In this document: positions 307-62,733 of the stretch, piece by piece | Layout: each line of letters opens with the position of its first letter | Numbering within the stretch: the stretch's first letter is position 1 | Source of the DNA: Bdellovibrionota bacterium | GTDB taxonomy: Bacteria; Bdellovibrionota_C; UBA2361; JBGSMV01 | Length of the DNA stretch: 64,000 nt | Direction of reading: 5' to 3' | Assembly: GCA_041739995.1 (NCBI GenBank) | Contig: JBGSMV010000061.1 | Location: 42,102 to 106,101 of the forward strand | Made by a program: the position numbers and the translations under genes | Notes under the pieces: generated by a model | What the model was told of the DNA's origin: nothing | The model's input: the letters and a program-made list of their open reading frames with translations, nothing else | Database searches by the model: none

Positions 307-1392
307 TCAGCCCCCAATCAGGCTTGCTCTTAGCTGGCCGTGCTTCTTAAGAGTCTCTTCAGAGAGAAGATGTGGAGTATGCAACGGTGCAAAGGTGTTG
401 AGAAACGTACGTATGCGCGAACTGCTTTGAGCGAATAGATCCGCATCAATTTGCCCACTATCGAGCAGTTGTTCCACCAGTCGGGCGACGCGGAATGCGC
501 GCGCGGGATCGTGGTTAAACAGCAAAATATCACATCCAGCCATTGGCGCGCGCAGGGCAACTTCCTCGTCTGAATAATTCTGGGAAATGGCCTTCATGTC
601 TAAGTCATCGCTGATGATTACGCCATCGAATCCCAATGACTCTCTGGCGAGGTCATAAAGCACGAGAGGAGAGAGGGTGGCGGGGAAATCAGGATCGAGG
701 TGCGGGAAGAGAATGTGGGCGGACAGCAAAGCAGGAATTCCTGAGTTTATAATGGCATGGAAAGGAAGGAGCTCTCTTGCTTTAAGAGATTCCACTGAGC
801 TCAAAAGAGTGGGGAGTTCTTCATGGGAATCTTGAGAAGTATCTCCATGTCCCGGAAAATGTTTAGCGACTGGAGCAATCGCTTCAGCAAGTAGGCCGCT
901 TGAGAATTCGCAGGCGGCCTTGGCCACCTCTGCAGGGTCGCTAGAAAAAGCGCGTGCGCCAATAACGGGGTTTTTCGGATTCGAGTCAATGTCGACCACC
1001 GGGGAAAACGACATGTTAATTCCAATGCTGCGCAGCTCAACTCCCATCGCAGTGGCGACCTCATGTGCGCGGTGGCGATACTCTCGAGCAAAGGGGAAGT
1101 GGGTAATGGGCTTAGGAGTGCGATAAACTCGGCCACCTTCGTGATCTAGGGCGAAGACCATTGACGAGCGTGGAATGAGCGCGAGCACAGATTCCCGAAG
1201 TGCTGATAGCTCGTCTAGCCAACCCTGATAGGGCAGATGTGAGGCGAAGTTATGTGCTCTGAGGATTACACCCAGCGGCTTCATTGCGCTGAGCCACGAC
1301 GACTCCTCTTCAGTAAGCCGCGTGCCAGAGAGCCCAACGATGAAGTGGCGCCCAATCTCCTCGGACACAGAATCGGATGCGGACTTGCTCAC
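307..1392 (-). CDS. nagZ: Beta-N-acetylhexosaminidase (GH3)
   Basis: DHEGGRV, KHFPGHGDT..DSH and SDDLDM motifs of NagZ. Confidence 0.9.
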   Translation of the reverse strand: MSKSASDSVSEEIGRHFIVGLSGTRLTEEESSWLSAMKPLGVILRAHNFASHLPYQGWLDELSALRESVLALIPRSSMVFALDHEGGRVYRTPKPITHFPFAREYRHRAHEVATAMGVELRSIGINMSFSPVVDIDSNPKNPVIGARAFSSDPAEVAKAACEFSSGLLAEAIAPVAKHFPGHGDTSQDSHEELPTLLSSVESLKARELLPFHAIINSGIPALLSAHILFPHLDPDFPATLSPLVLYDLARESLGFDGVIISDDLDMKAISQNYSDEEVALRAPMAGCDILLFNHDPARAFRVARLVEQLLDSGQIDADLFAQSSSRIRTFLNTFAPLHTPHLLSEETLKKHGQLRASLIGG

Positions 1393-1721
1393 CGGTAAAA
1401 ATCCTCAAAATGGCGCGATCTGCGGTTAGGTTCGCCTGCGGCAAGGGGTTTGTCGAGGCTAATCGGTCGAAGTTTGTTCGAGCGTGTAAGGTCTAGATTC
1501 CTCAAGAAAACCAAGGGAGTTGGCCTGAAAACCGGCCTCTGTGCACTCTGTGGCAGGTTGTAGTACCCTTTTCTTAGCGCCTGAGGGGTTTACACCCCAG
1601 GGCAGCTGGTGCTGCGAGAGCAGCGAGCGTTAGTTCGAGTTTTTAGTGGGTGTGTAGAGTTAATCAGCAACTTTAGCCCCAAGACATTGAGCATTTACTG
1701 CAATTACAGGAATGACTCGTT

Positions 1722-2705
1722 ATGAAATCAAAGACCACAAGACCGGCTTGCCCGGCGCCTCAAGAATCAATCCGAAGAGGTCCCCAGTCTGCGGCTCCGG
1801 CCCCGACTCAGGTTTCCCGTGTAACTGTACCGTCTTTGGTGGCACGCAAGGTTGCGACGGGTGCTACTCCAATCTCAGCGCTGACCGCGTACGACGCGAC
1901 GTTCGCCCGGCTCTTCGACCGAGCAGGAGTCGACGTGTTGTTAGTGGGGGACTCCGTCGCCAGTGTTGTTCAGGGGCTTGAGACCACGATACCGGTGACA
2001 CTTGACGAGATGATTTATCACTGTCGATGTGTCGCGCGCGTGGTGAGGCATGCCCTGGTGGTGGGTGACATGCCATTTTTGTCCTACCAGGTATCAGTCG
2101 AAGAAGCGGTGCTCTCAGCGGGGCGGCTCCTGAAGGAAGGTGGTGTCGCCGCGGTAAAATTAGAAGGTGGTCTTGCAGTCGCGCGCACCATTGAAAGATT
2201 GGTGGGCTTTGACATTCCGGTGATGGGGCATGTGGGCCTTACGCCGCAGTCTTATCATCGCATGGGCGGGCACCGCGTTCAGGGACGCGTGCGCGGAAGT
2301 GCGCGGGATGCGGGTAGTGCCGAGCGAATTATTCTTGATGCCAAAGCCGTCGCGGCCGCTGGCGCTTTCGCGCTGGTAATCGAGGGTGTGCCGAGCGAAG
2401 TAGCAGCGGAGATAACTGCTTCTGTTTCTATTCCAACCATCGGCATTGGTGCAGGAGTGGAGTGCGATGGGCAGATACTTGTTGGGGCCGATGCGCTTGG
2501 GCTTAATCCTGAGTTTAGTCCACGCTTTGTGAGGAGGTTTGCAGAGTTGGGAAAAGCTACGATTGAGGCGACCGCAGATTTTTGTAGAACTGTTCAAGCA
2601 AGGGCGTTTCCAGGCAAGGAGCATTCAATAGCTACGAGTAAAGCGGCGGATGCATCGCCTGCAAAACGAACTATAAAAAAGCAAAAGTCGCCGCAGGAGG
2701 TTTAG
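1722..2705 (+). CDS. panB: 3-methyl-2-oxobutanoate hydroxymethyltransferase (true start may be ~1820)
   Basis: LTAYD, LLVGDS, VGDMPF, AVKLEGG, VMGHVGLTPQ, TIGIGAG..CDGQILV. Confidence 0.96.
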   Translation: MKSKTTRPACPAPQESIRRGPQSAAPAPTQVSRVTVPSLVARKVATGATPISALTAYDATFARLFDRAGVDVLLVGDSVASVVQGLETTIPVTLDEMIYHCRCVARVVRHALVVGDMPFLSYQVSVEEAVLSAGRLLKEGGVAAVKLEGGLAVARTIERLVGFDIPVMGHVGLTPQSYHRMGGHRVQGRVRGSARDAGSAERIILDAKAVAAAGAFALVIEGVPSEVAAEITASVSIPTIGIGAGVECDGQILVGADALGLNPEFSPRFVRRFAELGKATIEATADFCRTVQARAFPGKEHSIATSKAADASPAKRTIKKQKSPQEV

Positions 2706-2706
2706 G

Positions 2707-3117
2707 ATGATGGAAGGCTATCGACGGTTACTCAGAGGAAAAATTCATCGTGCTACAGTCACGCACGCCGATCTTCACTACGAGGGCAGCATTTCTTTGT
2801 CGCCGGAACTTTTAGAGGCGGCCGGGTTTGTTGAGTACGAAGCAGTAGCAATTTGGAATGTAACTAATGGTCAACGCTTCGAGACCTACACTATCTGCGG
2901 GGAGTCCGGTTCTCGAGATATTTCAATTAATGGCGCAGCCGCTCGTCTTGTCGCACCTGGTGATTTGATAATAATCGCGTGCTTCGAGCTCGTGCCCGAG
3001 GCAAAGGCCGCGACCCATCAACCGCGCCTGGTCTTTGTGGACGCGAAAAATCGAATGCTTCCGTCTCGCCCCGAGGTGCCGGGGCCCAAGCGGGCACCGC
3101 ATTTAGTCTCGGTGTAG
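2707..3117 (+). CDS. panD: Aspartate 1-decarboxylase proenzyme
   Basis: GKIHRATVT.ADLHYEGS self-cleavage site, RFETYTI, NGAAAR; directly follows panB. Confidence 0.96.
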   Translation: MMEGYRRLLRGKIHRATVTHADLHYEGSISLSPELLEAAGFVEYEAVAIWNVTNGQRFETYTICGESGSRDISINGAAARLVAPGDLIIIACFELVPEAKAATHQPRLVFVDAKNRMLPSRPEVPGPKRAPHLVSV

Positions 3118-3270
3118 TAGGGGCTCTGTAGAGTCGGTACTGAGCTTCTTGCCCGATGCCTTGAAAAGTGGGCACTCGACGGCTAACCTGACCCGCTGCT
3201 TTGTAAAAGTTGCAGATTAAAAGTTTCAGAAATTAATCGCCGCGATAAGGATCGGGCGAACTAGGCAGAT

Positions 3271-3735
3271 ATGGCTAAGGCGGAGGGTGCACATAAGGTC
3301 ATTTGCGATAATCGCAAAGCACGCTTCAATTACGAGATCATTGAAGTGTTCGAAGCGGGACTCGTGCTGACTGGTCCGGAGATCAAGTCTGCGCGTGCAG
3401 GTCACGTTAAGCTGGACGCAAGTTTTGTTCGAGCTGATGGTGATGAGTTGTTTCTTGTGCAAGCTCGAATTGAGCCCTACCAATTTGATTCCCAGCAAGT
3501 GCTAGATCCGAGCCGCAAGCGAAAGCTGCTTTTGAATCGGCGTGAGCTCGATAAGCTACGTAGCTCGATTGAGAAGAAGGGCCTGACGATTGTTCCGCTC
3601 CGAATGTACCTCAAGCGCGGCTTCGCCAAGATAGAGGTGGCTCTTGCACGTGGAAAGAACGTTGCCGACAAGCGTGACACCGTCAAGAAGCGTGAGGCCG
3701 ACCGAGAGGCACAGCGCGCCATGAAGCGCGGGTAA
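3271..3735 (+). CDS. smpB: SsrA-binding protein
   Basis: NRKARFNY, EAGLVLTG.EIKS, RKRKLLL, DKR tail; adjacent to tmRNA. Confidence 0.97.
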   Translation: MAKAEGAHKVICDNRKARFNYEIIEVFEAGLVLTGPEIKSARAGHVKLDASFVRADGDELFLVQARIEPYQFDSQQVLDPSRKRKLLLNRRELDKLRSSIEKKGLTIVPLRMYLKRGFAKIEVALARGKNVADKRDTVKKREADREAQRAMKRG

Positions 3736-3830
3736 GTATCCTAAGTCCCCAGGCCCTCAAATATCATCTTAGATCAGGTGGAAAAATGGCATTGGAAGCC
3801 TTATATAGGTGGAGAGATTGTAATTTTTAT

Positions 3831-4222
3831 GGGGGTGTCAAGGTATCGACGGGATTCAACGATGCGATAGTAAGCGTGCCCAGGGACCGCTGGCCTGGTA
3901 AAAAAGCGGAATCTAAGAAGTGCTAACACAGACTTCACTCGTAACGAACGTATGGCTCTAGCAGCCTAACGGACGCTACGAAAAAATAGATTCATAGCCA
4001 CAAGCTACGAATCGGTCGCGAGGCGCCATGCTCGTAACGTCACGCGACTCATTCTCGAGCTGGTTCCTCATCGCGTCGAATGGTGGGGAATGAGAAAACT
4101 TTCGACTGGCTGTTTCGTATCCTGTGGGTTGGAGACGGAGCAGTAAGATAAATCACTCACTACGCATGTAGAAAGCTATCGTTGACGCTTCTCGGACGCG
4201 GGTTCGACTCCCGCCACCTCCA
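3831..4222 (+). ncRNA. ssrA: tmRNA; tag ORF 3922-3969 encodes ANTDFTRNERMALAA
   Basis: 5' GGGGGTG..TCGAC pairs with 3' CACCTCCA; T-arm GCGGGTTCGACTCCCGC; tag ends in ALAA-TAA; lies downstream of smpB. Confidence 0.95.
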
Positions 4223-4388
4223 TTCGACTCGGCCATAAAGGCCTCGCTCATGGCAAGCCATCCCTTCCGAGTCGAATGGAGCCCTGAGCGACCGAGAGGG
4301 AGTCGAAGGGCTCTCTCCGACCAAAGTTCGAATTGGTTCGACTCGCGCCACAGGCGCGCGCTCATTTATGGTGAGCTTGTCGAAGGGC
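4223..4388. repeat. Cluster of REP-like palindromic units (TTCGACTCG..GCTCA / TGAGC..GTCGAAGGGC)
   Basis: Four alternating-orientation units at ~4223, 4285, 4337 and 4372, most with internal hairpins. Confidence 0.7.
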
Positions 4389-4404
4389 TTCTCTTGGCTA
4401 GGTT

Positions 4405-4662
4405 CTACAGGTTAGTCCAATCGCCTGCAATCAAGGCGTCCTTCTTTGATCTACTCCACCCTTTGATCTGTCGTTCCCGTTTAAAAGCGTTGGCTTTATT
4501 TTCAAACGTTTCTCTATAAACAATCTTCCAAGGCATGAATTTGCGAGTATGCCCACACCTACCTGAGTTGTGGTACTCCAGTCGCAGAATTAGGTCAGCG
4601 GTCGCGCCGATGTACAATTGCCCTGGATTGCTGAAACTTCTCAAAATATACACGTGATTCAC
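4405..4662 (-). CDS. Small GIY-YIG nuclease (YhbQ/UPF0213-like)
   Basis: VYIL...YIG.T..L..RL..HN...A.KRERQIKGWSR.KK.ALI. Confidence 0.88.
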   Translation of the reverse strand: MNHVYILRSFSNPGQLYIGATADLILRLEYHNSGRCGHTRKFMPWKIVYRETFENKANAFKRERQIKGWSRSKKDALIAGDWTNL

Positions 4663-4812
4663 GCGTATATATTCGGAGAATCGAACAAGAAGTTTCCTAT
4701 AACCAGTTTAGCTTTATATCCCGAGTTGAGTAGTACCAGAGGATGAGGTTTCTCCACGGTTTCTTTCGGTCCTTCCGTCCCTATTCGAAAGCCAGGAAGA
4801 ATGGTCTCCGCA

Positions 4813-5277
4813 CTATGCCTTTGAGCGAACCGGCGTCATCCTCACATACAACAACTTCTCCACCTCAGCGATAACTCCGCCATTTTCGTCCACGACCTGA
4901 GTCATGAGAGTGGTTTCGAACTTCCCGAGTTCCAACGCCTTGGAGCGAATGTCCTTCACTGTGCTCGAGGATATTGAGAACTTTGCAGAGACGGCACCTT
5001 TTCCAGGACGCTTAAAGCGAATAGTGGCAGCTTTGTCCCACACGATAAAATCAGGGCCAAGCTGCTTAATCAGGATGAGCATGAACCAGGGGTCACACAT
5101 CGAGTAGAGTGAGCCACCGTAATGCACGCCAACATAGTTGCGGTTCCACCAACGCATCTTCATCTGCACCTCTAGTGCTGACCAGTCCGTCTCGCGATGG
5201 ACCATGCGAATGCCGGCCCCTAGGAACGGAGGATACCAATTGATGAATCGATCGAATATTCGCTGTCTGGAGAACAT
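4813..5277 (-). CDS. Hotdog-fold thioesterase (DUF4442-like)
   Basis: NWYPPFLGAGI, NRNYVGVHYGGSLYSMCDP, VWDKAATIRF. Confidence 0.85.
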   Translation of the reverse strand: MFSRQRIFDRFINWYPPFLGAGIRMVHRETDWSALEVQMKMRWWNRNYVGVHYGGSLYSMCDPWFMLILIKQLGPDFIVWDKAATIRFKRPGKGAVSAKFSISSSTVKDIRSKALELGKFETTLMTQVVDENGGVIAEVEKLLYVRMTPVRSKA

Positions 5278-5334
5278 AGAAACTACCTTTTCGATGCAAT
5301 CACTGCATCAAGTGCGCTGATGGTGTAGGGTTAC

Positions 5335-6486
5335 ATGATGCAAATCACGACACCACGGGGAACAATCTTGTCGATGACCATGGTTTTCGGGTCATGGGCG
5401 AAATTTCAGCTAAGACTTGTAGCCCTTGCTGCTTGCCTGATTCTGCTTCAGCTCAACCGAGTGTGCGCTGAAAACCCGCGCGAATTGCCCACCGTTCGAA
5501 TCGGAGCGATTTCAAACCTAACGGGTGAAGGGTCGTCATGGGGTATTAATCATCAGCGCGGGACTATCCTGGCGATGGAACAGCGCAATTCGGCTGGAGG
5601 CATTAGAGGCCAAAAGGTCGAAATCTTGTTCGAGGATTCCCCGGGTGGAGTCGCGCGTAATGCGGTTTCTGCTTATCGCAAGCTGGTTGACCTAGAAAAG
5701 GTGCGGGTGATTCTTGGGCCCTTAATGGGGGATGAATTGCTGGCTGTTTCTCCGCTTTCCCTGAGAGATAAGGTTTTTATGGTGGGGGCGACCTATATGC
5801 CAAGGCTCCCTGATAACTTTTTCTCAACCTGGATTGATGTTGATCAGGAAAGCGATCTGCTGGCTGAGCGGCTGCGCGCTTCCTACGGAAGAATTGCGAT
5901 TTTAGGTTCACAGCAGAGTTGGGAAAGCGCGGTGGCGCACCGAGTGAGAGCGACATTTACGAAACTTGGAGGTGAAGTTGTTGGATTCGAGGAGCCGTCT
6001 TCCGATGCGAGCGATGTCGCAGCCGAGGTGCTCAGGATTAGTCGGGGGTCTCCGGAGGCGATAGTAATTTCTAGCTACTTCCTTCTCCCGCACTATGCGC
6101 GGGAAATTCACCGATTGGGACTTGCGGCTCAGTTGTTTGGGATTGAACTCGACCAGTCAGTCATCGATAGCTGTGAGGGTAGGGTTGAAGGACTACGATT
6201 TATCGGACCGACACCGCCAACGAAGGCATTCGTGGACGCGTTTCAAGTGAGATGGGGTTCGCCTCCTGATTTGCCGGCTGCGCATTCCTATGATGCCGCG
6301 CGCGTATTGTTTGCAGCGCTCGAACAAACCGATCAAAGCTTTGAGCAGCTAAAAGGCTATTTCTCCCGACTGCTTAAGTACGAAGGAGTGACGGGTACGA
6401 TCTCGAGTGCCACAAACAGCACTCCGCTTCGCACCTCATGGTACTCCGTCGTCGCCGGACGAGTTCAGCAAGAGCAAAGACCCTAG
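5335..6486 (+). CDS. Branched-chain amino acid-type ABC substrate-binding protein (orphan)
   Basis: Hydrophobic N-terminus; RIGAI..LTG, GGI.G.KVEI.FED, AA.SYDA, GVTG.I motifs of the LivJ family. Confidence 0.82.
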   Translation: MMQITTPRGTILSMTMVFGSWAKFQLRLVALAACLILLQLNRVCAENPRELPTVRIGAISNLTGEGSSWGINHQRGTILAMEQRNSAGGIRGQKVEILFEDSPGGVARNAVSAYRKLVDLEKVRVILGPLMGDELLAVSPLSLRDKVFMVGATYMPRLPDNFFSTWIDVDQESDLLAERLRASYGRIAILGSQQSWESAVAHRVRATFTKLGGEVVGFEEPSSDASDVAAEVLRISRGSPEAIVISSYFLLPHYAREIHRLGLAAQLFGIELDQSVIDSCEGRVEGLRFIGPTPPTKAFVDAFQVRWGSPPDLPAAHSYDAARVLFAALEQTDQSFEQLKGYFSRLLKYEGVTGTISSATNSTPLRTSWYSVVAGRVQQEQRP

Positions 6487-53639: not shown

Positions 53640-55571
53640 TTAGCGCGTCAGAACGACTTGATTCGGAAGAGAGATGAGACGCGGAAATCGACCACCTCCA
53701 ACGTTCCAAATCAATGGTGAAAATGCGTCAACGGTTGACGGAGTGCTCAACTGCTGCGCCGAGACGCCGACACCGGCTGAAGTGCCACTTCCACCCTGTG
53801 TCGCATTTGGGTTTGACGATTTCAAGAAGAACGAGTGTTGAATGTCGAGTTCTCCGACCGCGGCCGGCAGACTGCTAAGTGTGCCAACCAGACCTCCGTG
53901 TGGTTCGGGGGAGGAAGACAAAGTGACCGCGCCAGCGGCGTAGCTTGTCTCAATACGAGTTCTGGAATTGACAACCATGTTCTCCAAAAATGGACGAACG
54001 AGACCGATGAGTCCCGAGGTGTCTTGAGATCCGGCAACCGCTCCGATGGAGTAGGAGTCCTTAATCTCAGAAGCCTCAGCGACCCCTATCAATCCTCCTG
54101 TTCCCTTGAATTGGGGGATTGCTGTGGTAGCGACCTCACCTTCTGCATAGGAGCGCTTGACTAAGGAAAGCTGTGACAAGCCAATGAGTCCACCAGTTGC
54201 TTCATTCGGAATGCTAGGAAATGGGCTCGGCAGGTCTGAGCTCACCACTGCCTCCGAATATGACAGACTTAGATTCGAAGAACGAAATAGACCGAACAGG
54301 CCGCCCACCCGACTGGTGCCGTATACGGCACCAGTCGCATTAACCTTTGTCGCTTCACAAAAGATGCATGCTCCGGCGACACCTCCAATCTGTCGTCCGA
54401 TCAGGGATGTGGGGGGTTCTACTAGAACCTCTGCACGTATATCCTCAAGGGTGGCTAGCCCGGATCCAAAAACTCCACCGGCATTGTTGGCGCCGCGTAC
54501 TTGCCCAGATACAAAAATGTTTATGAGATCGCCGGAAACTCCACCCGCGAGGATCCCCACGTTCTGTCCGCCGTTTACCACCGCGTTCTCGATGGAGAGA
54601 TTTCGAACTACTCCATTTACCTGCTTGAAGAGGCCCGCGTTATTCTGCGCCGGTGCTATGGCCGGCACATGTAGATTCGAGATGGTGAATCCGTTGCCGT
54701 CGAAGACTCGCGTAAAGGTCGGGAGGGGCTCCCATTCTCGGCCGGAAAGATCGATGTTCGCACACAGATCGACGATGAATGTCTCTCCTGTACTCAGAGA
54801 GGACGTGGTCCGCAGCGCCTCGAGCTCACTTGCCGAACGGACTGAAATGATGCCGGAGGTGGTGGTCGAGCAGGGGGCCGAGGGGCGTACTAATATCCGG
54901 CGACCCTGAGAGGATTGGTGTTGCGTGACAGTAATGTCGTGAAATCCAACGGAAGCACTCGAAAGATTCACGAACGCTGACCAGAGTCCGCTGGTCGAAC
55001 ATTCCGCAGTCACCGCTCCGGGGGTTATCTGGATCGTGCCGGAATTTGAATTGCAGGTACCGGTGAAATGCACCGCATTGAGTGCCTGTCCATAAAATGT
55101 GGCAAGTCGCGGGGGGGAGGTAATGGAAAGAACTCCTGCGAGACTTGGGGCTCCAGGCACTGGGGTGGGAAGTGGGGTCGGCGTGGCAGTAGGGGTTGGT
55201 TCCCCTGGTACGAGCGATTCGAAGGCAGCTACGCATAGCGGTCGCACTTTGCGACCGGCGCGTTTTGTGGTGGTGCGAACCAGAACGATTTTCCCGCGCT
55301 TCGTGAGGCGCACAATTCTCCGAATCTGTATCCGACCTTTTGGGCGGGCCCGACAAAGGAAGCGGATCCTTCCCCTTTTTACCATCTGAAACACGTCAGG
55401 GGAGGCTAGGATCAACTTGGACTTAATCCGCCAAGTCCTAACCCCCTGGGTTGATCGATTACCGGTCTGCGCAGTTGCGTTGAATGAGAGCAGTAGTACT
55501 CCAAGGAGTAATCCACTCGCCACAGCGATTAGGCGTAAGAGTTGGGAAAAACGAGGATGAAAGCTGCGCAT
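53640..55571 (-). CDS. Secreted GLUG-repeat surface protein
   Basis: Signal peptide, PT linker, FDGNGFTISNL, repeated GGL(I/V/F)G...SY..G.V. Confidence 0.8.
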   Translation of the reverse strand: MRSFHPRFSQLLRLIAVASGLLLGVLLLSFNATAQTGNRSTQGVRTWRIKSKLILASPDVFQMVKRGRIRFLCRARPKGRIQIRRIVRLTKRGKIVLVRTTTKRAGRKVRPLCVAAFESLVPGEPTPTATPTPLPTPVPGAPSLAGVLSITSPPRLATFYGQALNAVHFTGTCNSNSGTIQITPGAVTAECSTSGLWSAFVNLSSASVGFHDITVTQHQSSQGRRILVRPSAPCSTTTSGIISVRSASELEALRTTSSLSTGETFIVDLCANIDLSGREWEPLPTFTRVFDGNGFTISNLHVPAIAPAQNNAGLFKQVNGVVRNLSIENAVVNGGQNVGILAGGVSGDLINIFVSGQVRGANNAGGVFGSGLATLEDIRAEVLVEPPTSLIGRQIGGVAGACIFCEATKVNATGAVYGTSRVGGLFGLFRSSNLSLSYSEAVVSSDLPSPFPSIPNEATGGLIGLSQLSLVKRSYAEGEVATTAIPQFKGTGGLIGVAEASEIKDSYSIGAVAGSQDTSGLIGLVRPFLENMVVNSRTRIETSYAAGAVTLSSSPEPHGGLVGTLSSLPAAVGELDIQHSFFLKSSNPNATQGGSGTSAGVGVSAQQLSTPSTVDAFSPLIWNVGGGRFPRLISLPNQVVLTR

Positions 55572-55844
55572 AGGAACTCCACGTACAATCAATAATATTC
55601 CTCCCCATATCTGCGGATATCAAAAAATGCTTCAAAAATGCATTCGCAAATTATCGAATAAATTCGGGTCGTAGGCGGATTGGGGAGTTTTTTTTGCGCT
55701 GACCAAAGGCTGTCCCGGTGAGGGCGGTGCTCTGTGCCGCTTATGCTCGGAAGCCACTGGCAGCCACGGAGCGGCCCTGGTGAAGTGGCCTTAAGGTCTT
55801 CCCTTGGGGCAATGGAACCGTGCGCCTTTGAATTTTCTTCCACA

Positions 55845-56166
55845 GGCCCCGCCTAAAATGCCGCTGCTTTCAACGAATGAGTTCCTCGACGAAATGCCCC
55901 CCGAGGACTTCAGCGCCTCGCGCCCACCCAATTACCTGTTCCACACCTCGAGCACCGTTCGGCTGAGCTCACGGCCGTGAGCTCAGCCGCTACCAGCTCT
56001 GAGTACCCACTCACACTAAAAAACCCGTCTCTTCGCACCAAGGGGAGCATTCCAACGCTTCTCCGCGCGTCAGTTCATCAGCTCTTTAACCACATGAAAC
56101 AATCCGGCAGAGTTAGAACTGTCTTGGTTCGTTAACTCGATGGGTTAGTTCGATTTTCCTATGCCC
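55845..56166 (+). mobile_element. IS91/ISCR-like right-end remnant (repeat B copy 1 at 55984-56166)
   Basis: 183-bp repeat of 59772-59954 ending GATTTTCCTATGCCC; preceded by a 30-bp perfect palindrome (55960-55989) and an APPKMP... transposase-tail-like frame. Confidence 0.65.
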
Positions 56167-56200
56167 GATTGAAGTTTCAAAATGCGGCATTTTTGTGCAT

Positions 56201-57340
56201 TCAGGAATCACCCTTTGATTTCTTAAATCTCCAGGGAGAAAACCTCTCGGGGGCTTGTTCCGAGAGCCCCGCAGAGAAATTTGCCATCCACCTGCCGATA
56301 AGTGGTGCGAACTTATAGCCAGTGCCACAGAACCCAGTCGCCACTGCTACTCGTTCCGAAATTGCTCCGACGATAAAATCTCCATCAATCGTATTGTCGT
56401 AACAGCAAAGGTCGGCGTCTGAGACGGGTACTCGTTTCAGCTTTGAGTAGAGCGGCATAAATGTTTCAAGAAACAACTCCAGACTCCAAGGAGCTATTTT
56501 CTCCGTGCCAAGATTCGGTGGATTGAATACACCAATCTTTAATCCCGGAGTTGCACCGACCAGCATCGGGTGGCCGTATATTCCAATATCCAGACAAGCG
56601 AAGACTGGCAGTTCCGAGAGCAATGGTGAGGGGCTTTCAGGCAGGCAGTACATCGAGGCTAACGGGCGGTCGAGGTTGAGCTGCAACTCAGGAACCTCGA
56701 TACCGGTCACTTTCTTGAGAACTTCAGGAGCCCAGCGGCCAGCGGCTATGATGAGCTTGGCGGCACTAAGTTTCTCAAGGCCAACGGAGATCTCTATGCC
56801 GGCATTGGAAACTTCGATTTTATCAACAGCAGCATTCTCTAAGTACGGAATTTCGAGCGTCCTAAGTTCAGAGACTAGGCCCGAGCCGATCGCGCCAAGC
56901 TGGAGGACACCGCCGTTCACATCCAAGGTTCCTCGCGCGCAATTAAAACCAGACGGCAGCTCTTCACGCTCTCGAACTGAGAATTCGGCTTTGAGTTCTG
57001 CGAGGGCGTTGGCTGCTCTTCCTGCGTAGGAATCCACCCATGCAAGATTGAGTTTCGGATCCCACAAATTGAGGCACCCGCAGCGCTTTAGTGCAGTCAG
57101 TCCCAATTCTGATTCAAAGGTATCCCACTCGTTGCCAGCTTGCTGAGCAAGCGTAGAGTAGAGAGGGTCAAGATAGTCCTGTCGAAATGAACGGGACTTG
57201 CCACCCGATGCACTGAATGGGTTGAGCAGACTATACTGCTCGATGATGATTACTTTTGCGCCACGCTTTGCGAGGGCACGAGCAGTAAACATTCCCATCA
57301 CACCGCCGCCAAGGATTGCTACGTCATAGGTGCGACTCAT
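56201..57340 (-). CDS. FAD-dependent oxidoreductase, sarcosine/N-methyl-amino-acid oxidase (MSOX/SolA) family
   Basis: ILGGGVMG, ASGGKSRSFR..Y, IAAGRW, CCYDNTIDGDFIVG, GFCGTGYKFAP.IG. Confidence 0.85.
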   Translation of the reverse strand: MSRTYDVAILGGGVMGMFTARALAKRGAKVIIIEQYSLLNPFSASGGKSRSFRQDYLDPLYSTLAQQAGNEWDTFESELGLTALKRCGCLNLWDPKLNLAWVDSYAGRAANALAELKAEFSVREREELPSGFNCARGTLDVNGGVLQLGAIGSGLVSELRTLEIPYLENAAVDKIEVSNAGIEISVGLEKLSAAKLIIAAGRWAPEVLKKVTGIEVPELQLNLDRPLASMYCLPESPSPLLSELPVFACLDIGIYGHPMLVGATPGLKIGVFNPPNLGTEKIAPWSLELFLETFMPLYSKLKRVPVSDADLCCYDNTIDGDFIVGAISERVAVATGFCGTGYKFAPLIGRWMANFSAGLSEQAPERFSPWRFKKSKGDS

Positions 57341-58344
57341 ATTATCTCCTTATAGGCGGCATATCCGACGTATGCGAAGTTGTTTATCGTTTCGGGGGTA
57401 AAGGCTCGTGTCTGGTCATCAGCGAGAATACTCGCCATAGCCGAAGCGTACGTTTTTCCCGATACCTGACGTGCGAGATCGGGATCTATGTCTTGAAGTA
57501 CCTCTACAAAGCGTGGGAGATCGCACGGGTCCTTTGGCAGCAGCGAAAGAAGATCCAAGAAACCTCGACGTTTGACCAAAGATAATCCTGATGACCGCAA
57601 TTCGTTCGACAGCTCACGTGGTTCCGGGAACTGAGCGTTCAGAACTTGGCCGCCCTCGCCCAATGCCAAACCCTCTGGGGTTCTCCTAATGAGAATGGAA
57701 GGCGCGTAACCTAAGCTGCCTTTGTCCAGGGCTTGATAGACTCGAGCTGAGGCCGAACCGTACGCAGAAAGGACGAGAAGGCCCCCTGGCTTCAAGACGC
57801 GTGAGAATTCACGCAGGGCTCCCCGCCAGTCTTCTAGTAGGTTAATGACCGAAAATAGACAGGAGACGCAGTCATAGGAATTGCTTGGAGCGTCCTTTAG
57901 AAAACCCTCGATCGGAGAATTTATCAGCCTTATCTTTGAAGGATCGTCCATCGCAAGGCGAGCAAGCTTCTGTGACGTGATCTCAAGGTATGGCAACGCT
58001 AGATCGACGCCATCAATACACATCCCATATTGAGCCAACAGAGTTAGTTCACGACCAGTACCTGTCCCCGCAACGAGTGTTTTAAGCGAACTTAGGTTGC
58101 GTCCTACCGATTTAATGGAATCGAGCAAGAACGCTTCGTCCTCCTCTCGCATCACGTTTAAGGCAGAGTTCTCTTCCCATTCAACCCTGTCGTAGTCAGG
58201 AGCAAAATCAGATTCGATTTCCTGAGTTGCGCGCTGCCAGTCGCTCAGTATTTCGGGTCGAACCTCAATTTTTATTCCTGAAGAACGGGGTAGGGGGGTG
58301 CTTTGAGAAAGCGAAGTATTTACTGCTCTATTATCTGCGAACAT
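57337..58344 (-). CDS. Class I SAM-dependent methyltransferase
   Basis: LVAGTGTGRE, GVDLA, YDCV, RVLKPGG; ATGA overlap with the oxidase gene. Confidence 0.85.
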   Translation of the reverse strand: MFADNRAVNTSLSQSTPLPRSSGIKIEVRPEILSDWQRATQEIESDFAPDYDRVEWEENSALNVMREEDEAFLLDSIKSVGRNLSSLKTLVAGTGTGRELTLLAQYGMCIDGVDLALPYLEITSQKLARLAMDDPSKIRLINSPIEGFLKDAPSNSYDCVSCLFSVINLLEDWRGALREFSRVLKPGGLLVLSAYGSASARVYQALDKGSLGYAPSILIRRTPEGLALGEGGQVLNAQFPEPRELSNELRSSGLSLVKRRGFLDLLSLLPKDPCDLPRFVEVLQDIDPDLARQVSGKTYASAMASILADDQTRAFTPETINNFAYVGYAAYKEII

Positions 58345-58428
58345 AGCGATCCTGTTAGTTTGATCGCCGTACTTCCCTCTAGTAGTTTTGTTGATTTTAT
58401 TGGTGGATTAGCACCAAACATCAGATAC

Positions 58429-58456
58429 AAAAACGCCAGCTGGAAGCCGGCGTTTT
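58429..58456 (-). terminator. Attenuator terminator
   Basis: On the - strand AAAA-CGCCGGC-TTCCA-GCTGGCG-TTTTT; the G-U pair works only in this orientation. Confidence 0.8.
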
Positions 58457-58481
58457 AAATAAATATCTAATTGCACCAGCT

Positions 58482-58529
58482 TTAGCTTTGATGGGAGAGA
58501 TGATGGTGCTGATGTGGTGTGCGTGACAT
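58482..58529 (-). CDS. His-rich leader peptide MSRTPHQHHHLSHQS
   Basis: 5 His codons in 15; stop codon lies 25 nt before the terminator hairpin. Confidence 0.8.
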   Translation of the reverse strand: MSRTPHQHHHLSHQS

Positions 58530-58536
58530 GCCAGAG

Positions 58537-58565
58537 AATATGCCCACATCTTAACTCAGAGTCAA
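58537..58565 (-). promoter_or_regulatory. Putative sigma70 promoter for the leader transcript
   Basis: TTGACT-N17-CATATT, 7 nt upstream of the leader ATG; no Shine-Dalgarno sequence. Confidence 0.6.
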
Positions 58566-58777
58566 CGTAAATTTTCGGAACCAACAAAAAGTAAGAGTGC
58601 AGACTAGTTAATGTCGGGGTTCAAGTTCCTCCTGAGTGAATTCGACTCGCGCGTCCTTCCAGATTCTGAGCCCTTGTGTTTGAAGCCTGGTCCATCGCGC
58701 CCGCCCGTGGAGCTAGACTCGAATGTCGAATCTGAAAATGTAAATTTCAAGTGACGGAAGCGTGGTGCGGCTTTTCT

Positions 58778-59368
58778 CTACGCTCGTGGGCAGCACACCG
58801 CGTCGACGCTAAGTACGAATACGCTTGCGGTAGCAAACCTCTTAACGGACACCTCGACGCCGACGGGGATTTCTCCCCCCACCAATGACATGGTGGATCG
58901 GACAGTGGCACGAAGATTCGGATCTGGGTTTGGATTTAATGGGTGTGACGCATTCGAACGGAAGCTATGCGTCAGGATGTACTCGTTAGAAGTGTTGCAA
59001 AGTGGTTGTACCGTCAACTCGGATACGACAGGAAAAAAGAAGTTGGTATCGGTAGCGTTAACGATACGGCAGTTTTCAAGTCTAATGCTTCCTGCCGGTC
59101 CTGCGTTACCTGTGGAGCCTTGCGGTCCCTGTGCGCCGGCTTGTCCGACAGGCCCAGCTGGGCCCACACTTTCTTGAGAACCCGGGATCGAAGAGGGTTC
59201 GAGGAGTGTTTCGACTTTCACAAGACTTTCGTTGGCTCTGCATCGCCTGCGAACGAGAAATTTACCAGTCTGAGACTTGCAGATCCCGCTCACTACCGCC
59301 TCAGCTGGAGGAGCGGAGATCGACAAGATAGAGAGAAGAGCGAAAAATGTAACGACATTCCTTATCAC
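58778..59368 (-). CDS. Secreted protein with a short collagen-like repeat
   Basis: Signal peptide ending AEA; about 8 G-X-Y triplets; C-terminal AVCC. Confidence 0.75.
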   Translation of the reverse strand: MIRNVVTFFALLSILSISAPPAEAVVSGICKSQTGKFLVRRRCRANESLVKVETLLEPSSIPGSQESVGPAGPVGQAGAQGPQGSTGNAGPAGSIRLENCRIVNATDTNFFFPVVSELTVQPLCNTSNEYILTHSFRSNASHPLNPNPDPNLRATVRSTMSLVGGEIPVGVEVSVKRFATASVFVLSVDAVCCPRA

Positions 59369-59479
59369 GCTATGTACCTAAGGACGTCTCTAGCGTGCGC
59401 AACATACGATGAATGCGTGAACTTGCACCGGATCTGTAGTTACAGCCCACGGGGTTCTTGCTGCACTGGTCACCCGGGG

Positions 59480-59954
59480 GCTTATCACCGACGAGGTGCC
59501 GGCTCAAATTCTTTCACAGGAGCACGCAGGTTTCGGTGCGCTTGTCCCGCCGAAGCGTACTCGCGAAGGGGGATGGGTAGGGGACCCGTTTACGGAGGAA
59601 GACCGCATTAGGTTTGTTGCGCGCTATATTGAGAGGGGACCTCTCTCGCTCGAGAAGCTTGAGATCGCCAACAACATCGTCGTGTACACCACCAATGACG
59701 GACGCACACACGAGTTGGATGCACTGGAATTCCTGGCGCTCATGTCGTGCCATAACTTGTCCCGCCGAAGCCAGCCGCTACCAGCTCTGAGTACCCTCTC
59801 ACTCTAAAAATCCCGTCTCTTCGCACCATGGGGGGCATTCCAACGCTTCTCCGCGCGTCAGTTCATCAGCTCTTTAACCACATGAAACAACCCGGCAGAG
59901 TTAGAACTATCTTGGTTCGTTAACTCGATGGGTTAGATCGATTTTCCTAAGCCC
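59480..59954 (+). mobile_element. Internally deleted IS91/ISCR-family element: transposase fragment plus repeat B copy 2 (59772-59954)
   Basis: HAGF...WVG...ARYIERGPLSLEKL...ELDALEFLAL..H, typical of Y2 transposases, fused to the ori-like repeat. Confidence 0.75.
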
Positions 59955-60128
59955 AATGCGCGACATGATCGTGTCAACGCTCAGGAGTGCCCAGTGGTAA
60001 GGCGCTCTCGTCCGTTGACGTAGTGACCTAGGGTCGAACGCTATTCGTGCATCTATATACGCACCGAGGCGAGAGCGGAATTTCGCTTCAGAGTTTGGCT
60101 CGATAGCCGTTGCACCATGGTGTGCCGC

Positions 60129-62273
60129 TCAACCTCCAACTACAACCTTAAATTTGAGATTTTCAATTGCTGGGTCATTGGTTGGGATCACCACAATAAA
60201 CTTTCGCGCCGTTAGACTTGACACGTGAAACACTAAGTCTGCCTCTTGGCCAGACGCCAGTATCTGCGGGTAAGGTTTGACGGTGATGCCTTCTGATAGG
60301 TTCAAGGTTCCAAATTCGAGCACACCCGGACCTGAGTTAGAGACCCGAATAGTGAACTGGGTGGGTTCCGCCGGTGTTGAAGCGTTGGGGACCCACACTG
60401 TGTTCGCTCTTGGTTCGTTGTGGAGTTTGAAGGGCAGCGGGGGATTCTCTCGCGGTATCGGTCTACTAATGTGGGTCACTAGAAACCGTGAGGAGGGTTT
60501 CAGTGCGCAAATAGGGGTAACGCGCGCCACCCCAGAACAGAGCCCGGGTTGATTAAGCTCAACAGCCTGGAGGGCTTTTGCGAATCGATAACAAGTCTGA
60601 GAGTTCGCACCGTACAAATCATTGCATGCGTTTACCTGACAGTTGTACGCATTGAGAAAGGTTGGGGTGGTCGGATAGCACGCGGTAACGGCTCGGTAGA
60701 GAATGCGCTCAACAGCGGCCTCACCGATACCTGCAATAGTGCATCCGTTAAAGCTACCGCCCCGTGATGCAAGATAAGCTCCGTAGCTAGGGACCGCAGC
60801 GTTATTGTAGCGAGCGGTGGGATCTGTTCCGCAAACGAAGTTCGGAGAATAGTAACGGTTAGGATAATGCGGCCCGCTTGGGCCATAGCGCGAGGTCGTG
60901 GGATTGCCCAGATTAATAATATAATCGCTGCCTGGAACTCCGCCGATCCAATCCGCGCTGGCGTTGCGATACCTCTCAAACATCTCCCCAAATACGTAGG
61001 CTTGACTCTCATCGAGAGAGGCGGAGATTCCGGAATACGTTTGACCATTCGGGGGATGAGCAAAGTAAGTAAACGAGTGGGCGTATTCGTGGCCAGTCAC
61101 ATGGGGCACAAGGGCGCCCCGACAAAAATTGAGTCGACCCCGAGAGAAAGAGGCGGAGAGGCAGTTTGGTCCCCACGAAGGGTTGGCGTCCGAATAGACG
61201 TATGCTGTCGACCATTGTGGATTGCCTAGGATAGGGTCGAGTGTCCCGTTCTGATTGTTCCCACCATTTCGTCCGTACTGATCGAAGACCCAATTGTGAA
61301 GAGGTACGAACTCGTCGTACATCACGTCGACATCGAACGCCTGATAATACGGATTTATTCCCCAGGAGCCCGGGTCTGGTTCATACCGACCGTAGTGGTA
61401 TCCGTTTCGAGTCAGATTCCAGTAACAAGCCCCGAGTCCATAAACATACGGGGTGCAATCGTAGATCAATCGATTGAGTGGGCCCGCTCCGTGGGTGGTG
61501 CTGATGCGGTGGCGTAGCTCTCCTTTGTGCGCATCGATGTAATAAATGAAACCGCCGGTTGGATGAGCGTCCATCTCGATCTCATACGCTAAAAATGTGT
61601 GGTGATCCGAGGAGGGTGCTCCGTCGAGGAATGAGGGTGACACAAGGACGAGTTCGTTCCCCTGTACTTCGCCGGGCATAACCTCTGATTCAGCCCAGAG
61701 CTTGGAGGCCACTTGCTGGGCATCATTGGCGGATATCGAGGGATTGAGCTCTGGTACATTCCTAAGTTTGATTGCGCTGCCGTGCGCACGCTTTACCAAA
61801 CCGTTTTGCGCTAAATCTACAACGATTTGAGATCCCACGACTCGGATGCTGTTGTACACCTGGCCCATTCTAACTCGCTGTCCGTGCCGATCACTCTCTA
61901 CTCGCTGAGTAAGAAGCTCTGATGCGGGGTCATTGACCCAGGCACGCCCGAAAGAGCGCAGAAAGTTTTGAGCGACGCCGACTGGATCGGTCGCCGCATC
62001 CGCAAGTCGAACTGAACCGGGGCGCGATGAGCTGCGGGCTGCTCGGGGTGGATTCTTAGCGTTAACATCTATCTGCGAGACTTTGCCAAAAGCATCTAAG
62101 TGAAACTTGACACGCCCACTATCAATTATCTTGGCAACTTGAATTTCCTCGTCTTGGATATCGGCTGGCTGAACCTGCTGAGCAAACGCATCTGATGTGG
62201 AGAGCACAGCAAAGAGCACTGCAATGAGAAATGAGTGCCTGAGAATCCTTCGGACAACTTTGGTGGCGAACAT
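60129..62273 (-). CDS. Secreted M4 (thermolysin-like) metallopeptidase with FTP/PepSY propeptide
   Basis: Q.YN.I.V.G, YYIDAH.G, VTGHEYAH, SASLDES, GIG....ERI.YRA. Confidence 0.85.
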   Translation of the reverse strand: MFATKVVRRILRHSFLIAVLFAVLSTSDAFAQQVQPADIQDEEIQVAKIIDSGRVKFHLDAFGKVSQIDVNAKNPPRAARSSSRPGSVRLADAATDPVGVAQNFLRSFGRAWVNDPASELLTQRVESDRHGQRVRMGQVYNSIRVVGSQIVVDLAQNGLVKRAHGSAIKLRNVPELNPSISANDAQQVASKLWAESEVMPGEVQGNELVLVSPSFLDGAPSSDHHTFLAYEIEMDAHPTGGFIYYIDAHKGELRHRISTTHGAGPLNRLIYDCTPYVYGLGACYWNLTRNGYHYGRYEPDPGSWGINPYYQAFDVDVMYDEFVPLHNWVFDQYGRNGGNNQNGTLDPILGNPQWSTAYVYSDANPSWGPNCLSASFSRGRLNFCRGALVPHVTGHEYAHSFTYFAHPPNGQTYSGISASLDESQAYVFGEMFERYRNASADWIGGVPGSDYIINLGNPTTSRYGPSGPHYPNRYYSPNFVCGTDPTARYNNAAVPSYGAYLASRGGSFNGCTIAGIGEAAVERILYRAVTACYPTTPTFLNAYNCQVNACNDLYGANSQTCYRFAKALQAVELNQPGLCSGVARVTPICALKPSSRFLVTHISRPIPRENPPLPFKLHNEPRANTVWVPNASTPAEPTQFTIRVSNSGPGVLEFGTLNLSEGITVKPYPQILASGQEADLVFHVSSLTARKFIVVIPTNDPAIENLKFKVVVGG

Positions 62274-62733
62274 ACGCTTGTATCCCCTACATCTAACGAG
62301 CCCGCGCACTCTAGCAGAGCGGGCGAACCCATTCACCAAGTCCTATAGAGGATTTTGAATCGAACACGTAACGTCTATAGAGAGTAGGAAAGGGAATGTA
62401 ACCTATTGGCATTACGGGAGTAGTTCCGCTGAGAGGGGTCGTGTGGCCTGCGGTGCCGTGCAGCAGGGCCTCGTAGTGACTGTTTTCAGTTGTTGAGGCG
62501 CAGGTCTCCGAGCGCTGGGCGCTCCAAGTTTCCTTTGAGACCGTGGGGCTTGCAGAACATGAAGTAGCCCCCTGATAACCTCATCCGCTCTGCCTCTACA
62601 GCACCGCTGCTCCTCTCAAGTTGCATGGCGCTTTTAATGCAAGAAGCGGCTTGCCGGAGGTGCCTCCTGCAAGCCGCTCCCTTGATGTCTCTCCACCGAT
62701 CCCCACGACCAGAACCTATGGTTCAGGTGTTGG

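Follow-up and report, generated by a model that had tools for sequence, protein, structure and literature searches.

What connects a methyltransferase-oxidase operon with histidine? The question is raised by positions 58,345–58,565 of a 64,000-nucleotide stretch of contig JBGSMV010000061.1 (hereafter the window), which comes from a hot-spring bacterium of the Bdellovibrionota. On the minus strand of this region, the initial annotation had placed a promoter, a leader reading frame with five histidine (His) codons and three mutually exclusive RNA pairings in front of the operon. We conclude that the region is likely a working His-responsive leader-peptide transcription attenuator before the two genes, which reads the supply of charged tRNA-His. 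This interpretation is supported mainly because leaders with His codons recur on the same gene pair in Patescibacteria, i.e., the comparative evidence is deciding. All parts of the locus lie on the minus strand:

58537–58565, minus strand: promoter-like site, TTGACT (58565–58560), 17-base spacer, CATATT (58542–58537); 9 of 12 consensus matches.
58482–58529, minus strand: leader frame MSRTPHQHHHLSHQS, 15 codons plus stop, read from the sequence.
58504–58514, minus strand: region 1, CAUCAGC/GCACCA within the His codons, partner of region 2 in a weak helix that would act as a pause hairpin or anti-antiterminator; −7.4 to −7.7 kcal/mol.
58474–58487, minus strand: region 2, AGCU (58487–58484) plus AAGCUGGUG (58482–58474), from blocked-base folds.
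58455–58470, minus strand: small inner hairpin UUAGAU/AUUUAA closing the antiterminator loop, from folds of nascent RNA of 86–95 nucleotides (nt).
58444–58452, minus strand: region 3, CGCCGGCUU, the terminator 5' arm, paired in folds with region 4 or, as the 9-bp antiterminator, with region 2.
58429–58456, minus strand: intrinsic terminator, 12 bp, loop UCC, 58456–58445 with 58441–58430, U run (U5) at 58433–58429; −17.1 kcal/mol in RNAfold.
57337–58344, minus strand: methyltransferase gene, 335 amino acids (aa), AGGA 6 bases before the ATG, named by Pfam and NCBIfam.
56201–57340, minus strand: oxidase gene, 379 aa, start overlapping the methyltransferase stop by 4 bases, from open reading frame (ORF) and family searches.

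The initial annotation was correct in the coordinates of the leader frame (58529–58482), in its peptide and in its five His. The ATG lies at 58529–58527, i.e., 7 bases past the CATATT hexamer, and the stop codon TAA at 58484–58482. His occupies codons 6, 8, 9, 10 and 13, and hence five of the eight codons from 6 to 13 (58514–58512, the three consecutive codons at 58508–58500, and 58493–58491). An AU-rich stretch lies between the frame and the hairpin on the minus strand. The hairpin was located both by RNAfold and by a genome-wide hairpin scan; a simple terminator scan left it unlisted on the minus strand and gave only a 5-bp form on the plus strand. The terminator is followed after 84 nt by the methyltransferase ATG. 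Methyltransferase and oxidase genes are probably translationally coupled, because start and stop overlap by 4 bases. The promoter that had been claimed is present as TTGACT-17-CATATT and is, with its 9 of 12 matches, a consensus match only, since a scan of 1.6 kb found three such sites compared with 1.4 in shuffled sequences. Judged from the spacing, transcription would start 7–8 bases past the −10 hexamer, on or beside the A of the leader ATG, and the leader mRNA is possibly leaderless.

Region 2 starts inside the last sense codon and the stop codon, and its 9-base core AAGCUGGUG begins at the last base of the UAA. The main antiterminator is formed by this core (58482–58474) and region 3, CGCCGGCUU (58452–58444), over 9 bp, and is exclusive with the terminator. 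Its energy amounts to −10.2 kcal/mol for 8 bp alone and to −18.2 kcal/mol together with the inner and outer helices of the nascent RNA, compared with −17.1 kcal/mol for the terminator. Dinucleotide shuffles of the pre-terminator sequence gave a mean of −9.2 ± 2.3 kcal/mol, and 4 of 2000 reached −18.2 kcal/mol; for the fold of the whole leader, z was −2.56, with 5 of 200 shuffles folding equally well. The alternative pairings described initially were in part different. GCACCA (58509–58504) can indeed pair with TGGTGC (58478–58473) as a 1:2 helix, but this is weak (−7.4 kcal/mol; −7.7 kcal/mol for the minimum free energy variant). AGCTGG (58481–58476) can pair with CCAGCT (58443–58438; −7.4 kcal/mol), but this is not the main antiterminator, and the AGCU/AGCU part of it is only an outer extension of the region 2:region 3 pairing. 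The terminator had been drawn properly, with 12 bp, −17.1 kcal/mol and U5 at 58433–58429.

Folds in which the bases under a ribosome were blocked fit ribosome-mediated attenuation, as had been proposed for the geometry of this leader. With the ribosome at the stop codon, i.e., with this codon in its A site, region 2 is covered and the terminator is the sole strong structure left. With the ribosome at His codons 8–10, nascent RNA of 86–95 nt pairs region 2 with region 3 at −12.6 to −18.2 kcal/mol. The leader might hence work as follows. Transcription would start at the promoter-like site, at or beside the leader AUG, and a ribosome would translate the 15 codons. When His-tRNA is ample, the ribosome would reach the UAA and mask region 2; region 3 would pair with region 4 and transcription would stop near 58429. 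When His-tRNA is scarce, the ribosome would stall on His codons 6 and 8–10 with its front edge about 5 bases short of region 2. In this stalled state, region 2 would capture the 5' arm of the terminator once it is made, region 4 would remain unpaired, and the polymerase would read into both genes. Both enzymes would then be induced by histidine shortage.

We analyzed 16 loci that encode a clear relative of the methyltransferase, retrieved with alignment A2, some of them duplicate sequences; the A2 peptide pattern leaves out the homologues closest to the window protein (P0123, P0124, P0129 and P0130). The enzyme pair recurs in Patescibacteria with 30–38% identity to the window proteins. From the sequences, we regard the methyltransferase-oxidase pair as a conserved module, because an oxidase homologue (29–37% identity) follows directly downstream on the same strand in 12 of the 16 loci. 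The four loci without a directly following oxidase are L023 and L028 (the same sequence twice, with genes other than the oxidase as neighbours), L029, and L037 (contig ends).

Eleven distinct loci had at least 150 nt of upstream sequence, and nine of them (L025, L026, L030, L031, L034, L035, L036, L037 and L038) carry a short His-containing frame together with alternative hairpins and a terminator. The search for His-rich upstream frames before homologues that the initial annotation had recommended was thus positive. The leader frame ends in HH or HHH in eight loci and in HQ in L026. In all nine, it runs through a CCCYGCC/GGCGGGG hairpin and stops at this hairpin or 12–18 bases past it; a CCCCGCC/GGCGGGG hairpin with a U run follows, 20–40 bases ahead of the methyltransferase ATG. 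As region 2 (GCGGGGU) and region 3 (ACCCCGC) are complementary, the 1:2, 2:3 and 3:4 logic is that of the window, and region 4 can pair with region 1 too. Both exceptions, L029 and L023, are methyltransferase genes internal to operons. In L029 (87–1780), the methyltransferase gene begins 14 bases past hisS, the gene of histidyl-tRNA synthetase, and no oxidase homologue was found within 1 kb downstream. The L023 operon (1350–5967) encodes a HisC-like aminotransferase, a Glu/Leu/Phe/Val-type dehydrogenase, the methyltransferase and a D-2-hydroxyacid dehydrogenase, without an oxidase. Near position 1654 of L023, CATCAT, a small hairpin and a T run stand about 40 nt before the first gene, a candidate His leader of another type.

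The Patescibacteria leader is found beyond this gene pair. A pattern for its 5' half, which itself required CAUCAU and a fixed region 2, matched in 35 of 201 Patescibacteria genomes (37 matches), and the reversed pattern gave no match. A U run lies 40–75 nt downstream in 28 of the 35 distinct matches examined; L034 and L038 were dropped by this filter only through an earlier T run. Five pattern matches (L045, L052, L053, L069 and L071) fall on coding sequence or on terminators of the ordinary kind. In 26 of the 28 leaders, the His codons have an in-frame ATG within 60 codons, compared with 2 and 3 of 28 for the other two frames. In the remaining two leaders, the His frame is a TrpR-family gene of about 95–100 codons that ends in ...NHH(H)LA.AG, followed by the stop codon; these repressor-gene leaders are located at L047:9–96 and L068:1451–1537, both on the minus strand. 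Here, the TrpR/HisR-family repressor gene would double as the gene of the leader peptide. The leader peptides have nothing in common beyond the His codons and the residues that the hairpin dictates, and their N-terminal parts vary freely.

The genes downstream of this leader encode HisG (four loci), class I/II aminotransferases (four), phosphoribosyltransferase-HAD fusions (three), HutH-like aromatic amino acid lyases (two) and the methyltransferase (two); a nucleoside hydrolase, a GNAT fusion and proteins without a Pfam family occur once each. The gene order in genome G147 is leader, hisG, hisD. Further examples of leader positions are L057:1489–1590 and L046:1489–1580; these loci (L042–L070) come from genomes G124–G292. 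We folded 32 such leaders with blocked bases, and the terminator formed in 32 of 32 both with the ribosome at the stop codon and without a ribosome. In a MAFFT alignment of the leaders, the 1:2 helix appears in two registers and regions 2 and 3 are nearly invariant.

Several points weigh against an attenuator in the window. That the promoter is used, the leader translated, the 3' end formed at the hairpin and the operon responsive to His are all deductions from sequence; a search of the available runs for RNA that contains 57300–58800 had no match. On the full-length leader at equilibrium, the terminator is retained with the ribosome on the His codons. The comparison of folds with and without blocked His codons, which the initial annotation had advised, hence yields the antiterminator on nascent RNA but not at equilibrium and full length. 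With a ribosome placed on the His codons, nine of the 32 Patescibacteria leaders have the 2:3 helix as their most stable equilibrium fold, and 23 keep the terminator. Because of this retention at equilibrium, the switch must be kinetic, as is assumed for classical attenuators, and our reliance on nascent-RNA folds presupposes such control. On unblocked nascent RNA, the antiterminator beats the weak 1:2 hairpin (−7.7 kcal/mol), and therefore termination without translation is not predicted for the window leader. The HutH-like gene under the Patescibacteria leader (two loci) is odd for an element induced by starvation; it misfits a simple "make more histidine" logic unless the enzyme runs in reverse. 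No methyltransferase orthologue was found in 40 relatives or in the other 123 genomes of the phylum examined, and no DNA match to 58345–58780 in 20 relatives; a word-index protein search with the methyltransferase returned itself and one weak match only. Contigs of four public DNA runs are fragmentary and near-identical to the window. They have the leader unchanged where they cover it, and leave 58424–58474 uncovered. This is the terminator-hairpin stretch, before which one contig piece ends at 58423 and others begin at 58475 and 58477; the gap probably arose during assembly, through low depth and the inverted repeat.

A covariance model built from the 32 Patescibacteria leaders (R1) bears on both sides. 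Its best match in the 64-kb window, on both strands, was 58505–58429 on the minus strand, in register with the His/Gln codons, regions 2, 3 and 4 and the U run; this match is not significant (14.4 bits, E 0.34), and common descent is hence no more than possible. The leaders of the window and of Patescibacteria have the same architecture, and they may equally well be independent inventions. Either origin supports a functional tie of the gene pair to the supply of His-tRNA.

Could the hairpin be an ordinary terminator, of the upstream collagen-like gene or of a small RNA whose transcription begins at the promoter-like site? The His frame would then be a product of chance and untranslated, and the operon would have its own unrecognised promoter or depend on leaky read-through. 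We found no Shine-Dalgarno-like motif in the sequence upstream of the His frame, which speaks for this explanation and against an attenuator; such motifs occur in about 37% of the long ORFs of the genome, compared with 15% in a control window. The promoter is a mere consensus match, and our scan found no terminator-like site between the stop of the upstream gene (58778) and the leader hairpin. Moreover, a promoter, about 100 nt and a terminator are the anatomy of a small RNA gene too. Chance has to be judged within a single genome, G000 (3.8 Mb, 81 contigs, 52% G+C, 91% complete). Its 31128 ATG frames of 8–40 codons include 76 with at least five His, a number that also counts against the attenuator; since His-rich short frames are thus not rare, single-genome statistics would be weak. 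We counted 2066 terminator-like hairpins in our own scan, 401 of them outside long ORFs, and a single one of the 2066 has an ATG frame with at least four His in eight codons ending at most 70 nt upstream, i.e., the window leader. The same scan gave 0–8 such cases for other two-codon amino acids, and therefore coincidence would be a realistic option if one genome alone were considered. Convincing Trp, Phe, Thr, Leu or Ile leaders before terminators were not found in the genome scan. The explanation by chance nevertheless leaves much unaccounted for. The sequence that complements the terminator 5' arm over 9 bp is located right at the stop codon, and 4 of 2000 shuffles match its strength. The window pair of frame and terminator is the sole one of its kind in the genome. 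Between the terminator and the methyltransferase start, no promoter-like site was found, and the nearest one (58358–58330) overlaps the start codon. Above all, chance does not explain why 9 of 11 distant loci of the gene pair have His leaders and terminators. We therefore consider an ordinary terminator unlikely, although it is the most serious competitor of the attenuator.

A switch might also sense a protein, a metabolite or an uncharged tRNA instead of ribosome stalling, with the His codons as a by-product of a conserved RNA. The CAUCAU motif is conserved in the Patescibacteria element, although it was a requirement of the search pattern, and blocking by a ribosome alone fails to flip most leaders at equilibrium. 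An RNA conserved for its own sake would hardly explain that 26 of 28 leaders have a His frame that begins with an ATG and stays open, compared with 2–3 of 28 for the other frames, while the N-termini vary. The window leader differs in sequence, yet it has in-frame His codons and a stop codon abutting region 2, and no Rfam family matched at threshold on this leader or on eight Patescibacteria loci. We judge such a sensor to be improbable. Even less credit is due to the idea that a His-rich peptide with a function of its own is made from the short frame, be it a metal binder or a precursor modified by both enzymes, with the terminator setting the ratio of peptide to enzymes. A small gene, a leaky terminator and tailoring enzymes are the layout of peptide natural-product clusters, and the methyltransferase has a weak match (E 1.2e-5, far below the cut-off) to the methyltransferase of daptide-type ribosomally synthesized and post-translationally modified peptides (RiPPs). 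But 15 residues are very short for a precursor peptide, the Patescibacteria peptides share nothing beyond the His codons and hairpin-forced residues, and the same leader stands there before hisG-hisD, an aminotransferase and other unrelated genes and is, in two loci, the C-terminus of a TrpR-family protein. We regard a functional peptide as very improbable. A His-responsive attenuator hence remains the reading that we prefer.

What might the two enzymes do? The first gene encodes a class I S-adenosylmethionine (SAM)-dependent methyltransferase, and this is the sole name given by Pfam and NCBIfam. Its family is small and has conserved N- and C-terminal extensions or segments outside the methyltransferase core. 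A HMMER search of 1.84 billion representatives found 21 relatives at E ≤ 1e-10, about 20 of them full-length with 32–38% identity, and the named members come from metagenome-assembled genomes of Patescibacteria. The structural model is confident (pLDDT 91.9). Foldseek retrieved generic class I small-molecule and tRNA methyltransferases with it, and a protein atlas generic methyltransferase clusters. The second gene encodes a FAD-dependent DAO-family oxidase nearest to N-methyltryptophan oxidase and monomeric sarcosine oxidase (NF008425, 1e-37; TIGR01377, 6e-34); both scores are under the curated cut-offs and do not set the subfamily. It aligns over its full length with the solved monomeric sarcosine oxidases 1zov and 1el5, with Cys-Cys-Tyr opposite Val-Cys-Met-Tyr. 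It keeps residues aligned with the flavin-linked Cys and with basic residues of sarcosine oxidase. The oxidase is hence predicted to be of a type that oxidises N-substituted amino acids. We rejected an MnmC-type tRNA modification pair, as the oxidase resembles the FAD domain of MnmC only in the N-terminal dinucleotide-binding part, with partial matches to TIGR03197 (residues 6–37) and NF002480 (residues 5–204, E 8e-6).

The histidine pathway was sought in the source genome. hisD (PF00815) and hisG (PF01634) were not found in this 91% complete assembly, and the same searches were positive in 14 of 14 control genomes. In four Patescibacteria genomes that carry the methyltransferase (G124–G127, completeness not given), neither hisD nor hisG was found; the control G147 has both. 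A single match to PF00977, the HisA/HisF family, lies in the source genome at 43125–43805 of contig C60. By itself, a lone PF00977 match is no evidence of a his pathway, and the protein may have a role other than histidine synthesis.

In Patescibacteria, a second regulator may act at these leaders. In all 7 loci tested, a TrpR-family gene (PF01371) is divergent from the leader promoter; the source genome of the window yielded none. The best solved relative of one such protein is 3G1C (E 1.4e-11), and E. coli TrpR is absent among its matches at E ≤ 0.01. According to PMC9413887, 3G1C is HisR of Eubacterium eligens, a histidine-responsive repressor of the TrpR family that binds 20-bp palindromic sites. 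Between the leader and the divergent HisR-like gene, the promoter coincides in part with a palindrome of about 20 bp that has GTTAAC at its centre; this palindrome is perfect in L038 (about 3825–3850), and L025, L026, L030 and L034–L037 have it at matching places. The GTTAAC palindrome looks like a candidate operator of the HisR-like protein, which would place the operon under dual control by repressor and attenuator. The conserved Patescibacteria leader is accordingly a candidate for a His-starvation regulon under such dual control, and one without an Rfam family, as none matched at threshold. The initial annotation had spoken of non-his genes. They are indeed not his biosynthesis genes, but they are probably not unrelated to histidine either, as in Patescibacteria they share a leader type with hisG-hisD and adjoin a HisR-like gene.

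The enzymes probably help cells that are unable to make histidine to cope with its shortage. With low confidence, we suggest that they obtain or spare histidine, e.g., by an oxidase that releases L-histidine from an N-substituted histidine. A more far-reaching proposal is made here tentatively, and we hold it to be possible but rather doubtful: the pair would be an unrecognised pathway of histidine acquisition or sparing in bacteria without the classical his pathway, with the oxidase freeing L-histidine. It would have been put under His control at least twice, by a HisR-like repressor and an HH leader in Patescibacteria and, in this hot-spring bacterium, by a leader with five His codons whose start is possibly leaderless, and an entire His-starvation regulon would be marked by the Patescibacteria leader. 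If this is true, the regulon would comprise hisG-hisD, an aminotransferase, a phosphoribosyltransferase-HAD fusion, a HutH-like lyase perhaps working in reverse, a nucleoside hydrolase and several proteins that belong to no known family.

The codons of a leader are a built-in label that names the amino acid served by the genes downstream. Here, a His label stands on two enzymes that no database ties to histidine, in genomes without detected hisG or hisD. This offers a concrete hypothesis on the function of a conserved enzyme pair of Patescibacteria, a group that may depend on hosts for nutrients. It also provides a candidate His-starvation regulon in organisms that cannot be grown alone.

The minus-strand neighbours of the operon encode secreted proteins, i.e., a 650-aa protein without a Pfam family (53640–55592), a 196-aa protein with a collagen-like repeat (58778–59368) and an M4 (thermolysin-type) peptidase with propeptide (60129–62339). 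The neighbourhood of the operon is variable, because no syntenic counterparts of the flanking genes, the M4 peptidase and the 650-aa secreted protein, were found in four relatives of the family.

How does this leader compare with known attenuators? Among the closest ones is hisL of E. coli, Salmonella and other Gammaproteobacteria (His_leader, RF00514), with which it has in common clustered His codons, exclusive hairpins, a terminator before the first structural gene and a logic of read-through upon ribosome stalling for lack of His-tRNA. hisL has seven His in a row, compared with five His in eight codons in the window. Unlike hisL, the window leader has a weak 1:2 hairpin, its start is possibly leaderless, its target genes are not his biosynthesis genes and hisG and hisD were not detected in its genome. 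RF00514 gave no match at E ≤ 1 in 55000–62000. The only leader-type Rfam match in these 7 kb was Thr_leader at 58426–58515 on the minus strand (23 bits compared with a gathering threshold of 55, E 0.65), a faint sign of an attenuator-like shape and nothing more.

Mycobacteria reportedly use leaderless short ORFs with polycysteine as cysteine-responsive attenuators (bioRxiv 10.1101/834739). The window leader is similar in having a short frame at the mRNA 5' end, no Shine-Dalgarno motif, enrichment of one amino acid and a downstream operon tuned to its supply. It differs in having His instead of Cys, and its leaderless start is suggested by promoter spacing alone. The E. coli trp operon combines repression by TrpR with attenuation at trpL. 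The Patescibacteria loci likewise join a TrpR-family (HisR-like) gene and an operator-like palindrome with an attenuator; here the amino acid is His, and the window has the attenuator half only.

The Patescibacteria leader is likewise close to that of the window. Both stand before the same gene pair and have a His-containing short frame, a stop codon just after region 2, a region 2 complementary to the terminator 5' arm, and a U run. The Patescibacteria leader differs in its two to three His codons, compared with five in the window, in a region 4 that can also pair with region 1 and in its GC-rich arms (CCCYGCC/GGCGGGG, compared with GCACCA/UGGUGC and CGCCGGC/GCUGGCG in the window). It is also accompanied by a HisR-like gene and a 20-bp palindrome, whereas the source genome of the window has no TrpR-family gene.

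In Firmicutes, His leader peptides have been placed before hisS*/hisZ in bacilli (PMC2965389) and before his operons in the Bacillus cereus group, Peptostreptococcaceae and Erysipelotrichales (PMC9413887). They resemble the window leader in occurring outside Proteobacteria, in their three to five His codons, in a non-biosynthetic target (a hisS paralogue) and in resting on comparative genomics only. They belong to another phylum, and a methyltransferase-oxidase target is mentioned in neither paper; the word methyltransferase has no occurrence in PMC9413887. His leader-peptide attenuators are thus established in Gammaproteobacteria. For Firmicutes, they are predicted on his operons, on hisZ and on a hisS paralogue. 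As the initial annotation had supposed, the literature searched (full text, and passages of PMC2965389 and PMC9413887) contained no His attenuator on this gene pair, nor one in Patescibacteria. Attenuation by His leader peptides would hence extend to lineages for which that literature has no description. The mechanism is of a known kind; what is new is the lineage, the leader sequence family, the target genes and the physiology that they imply.

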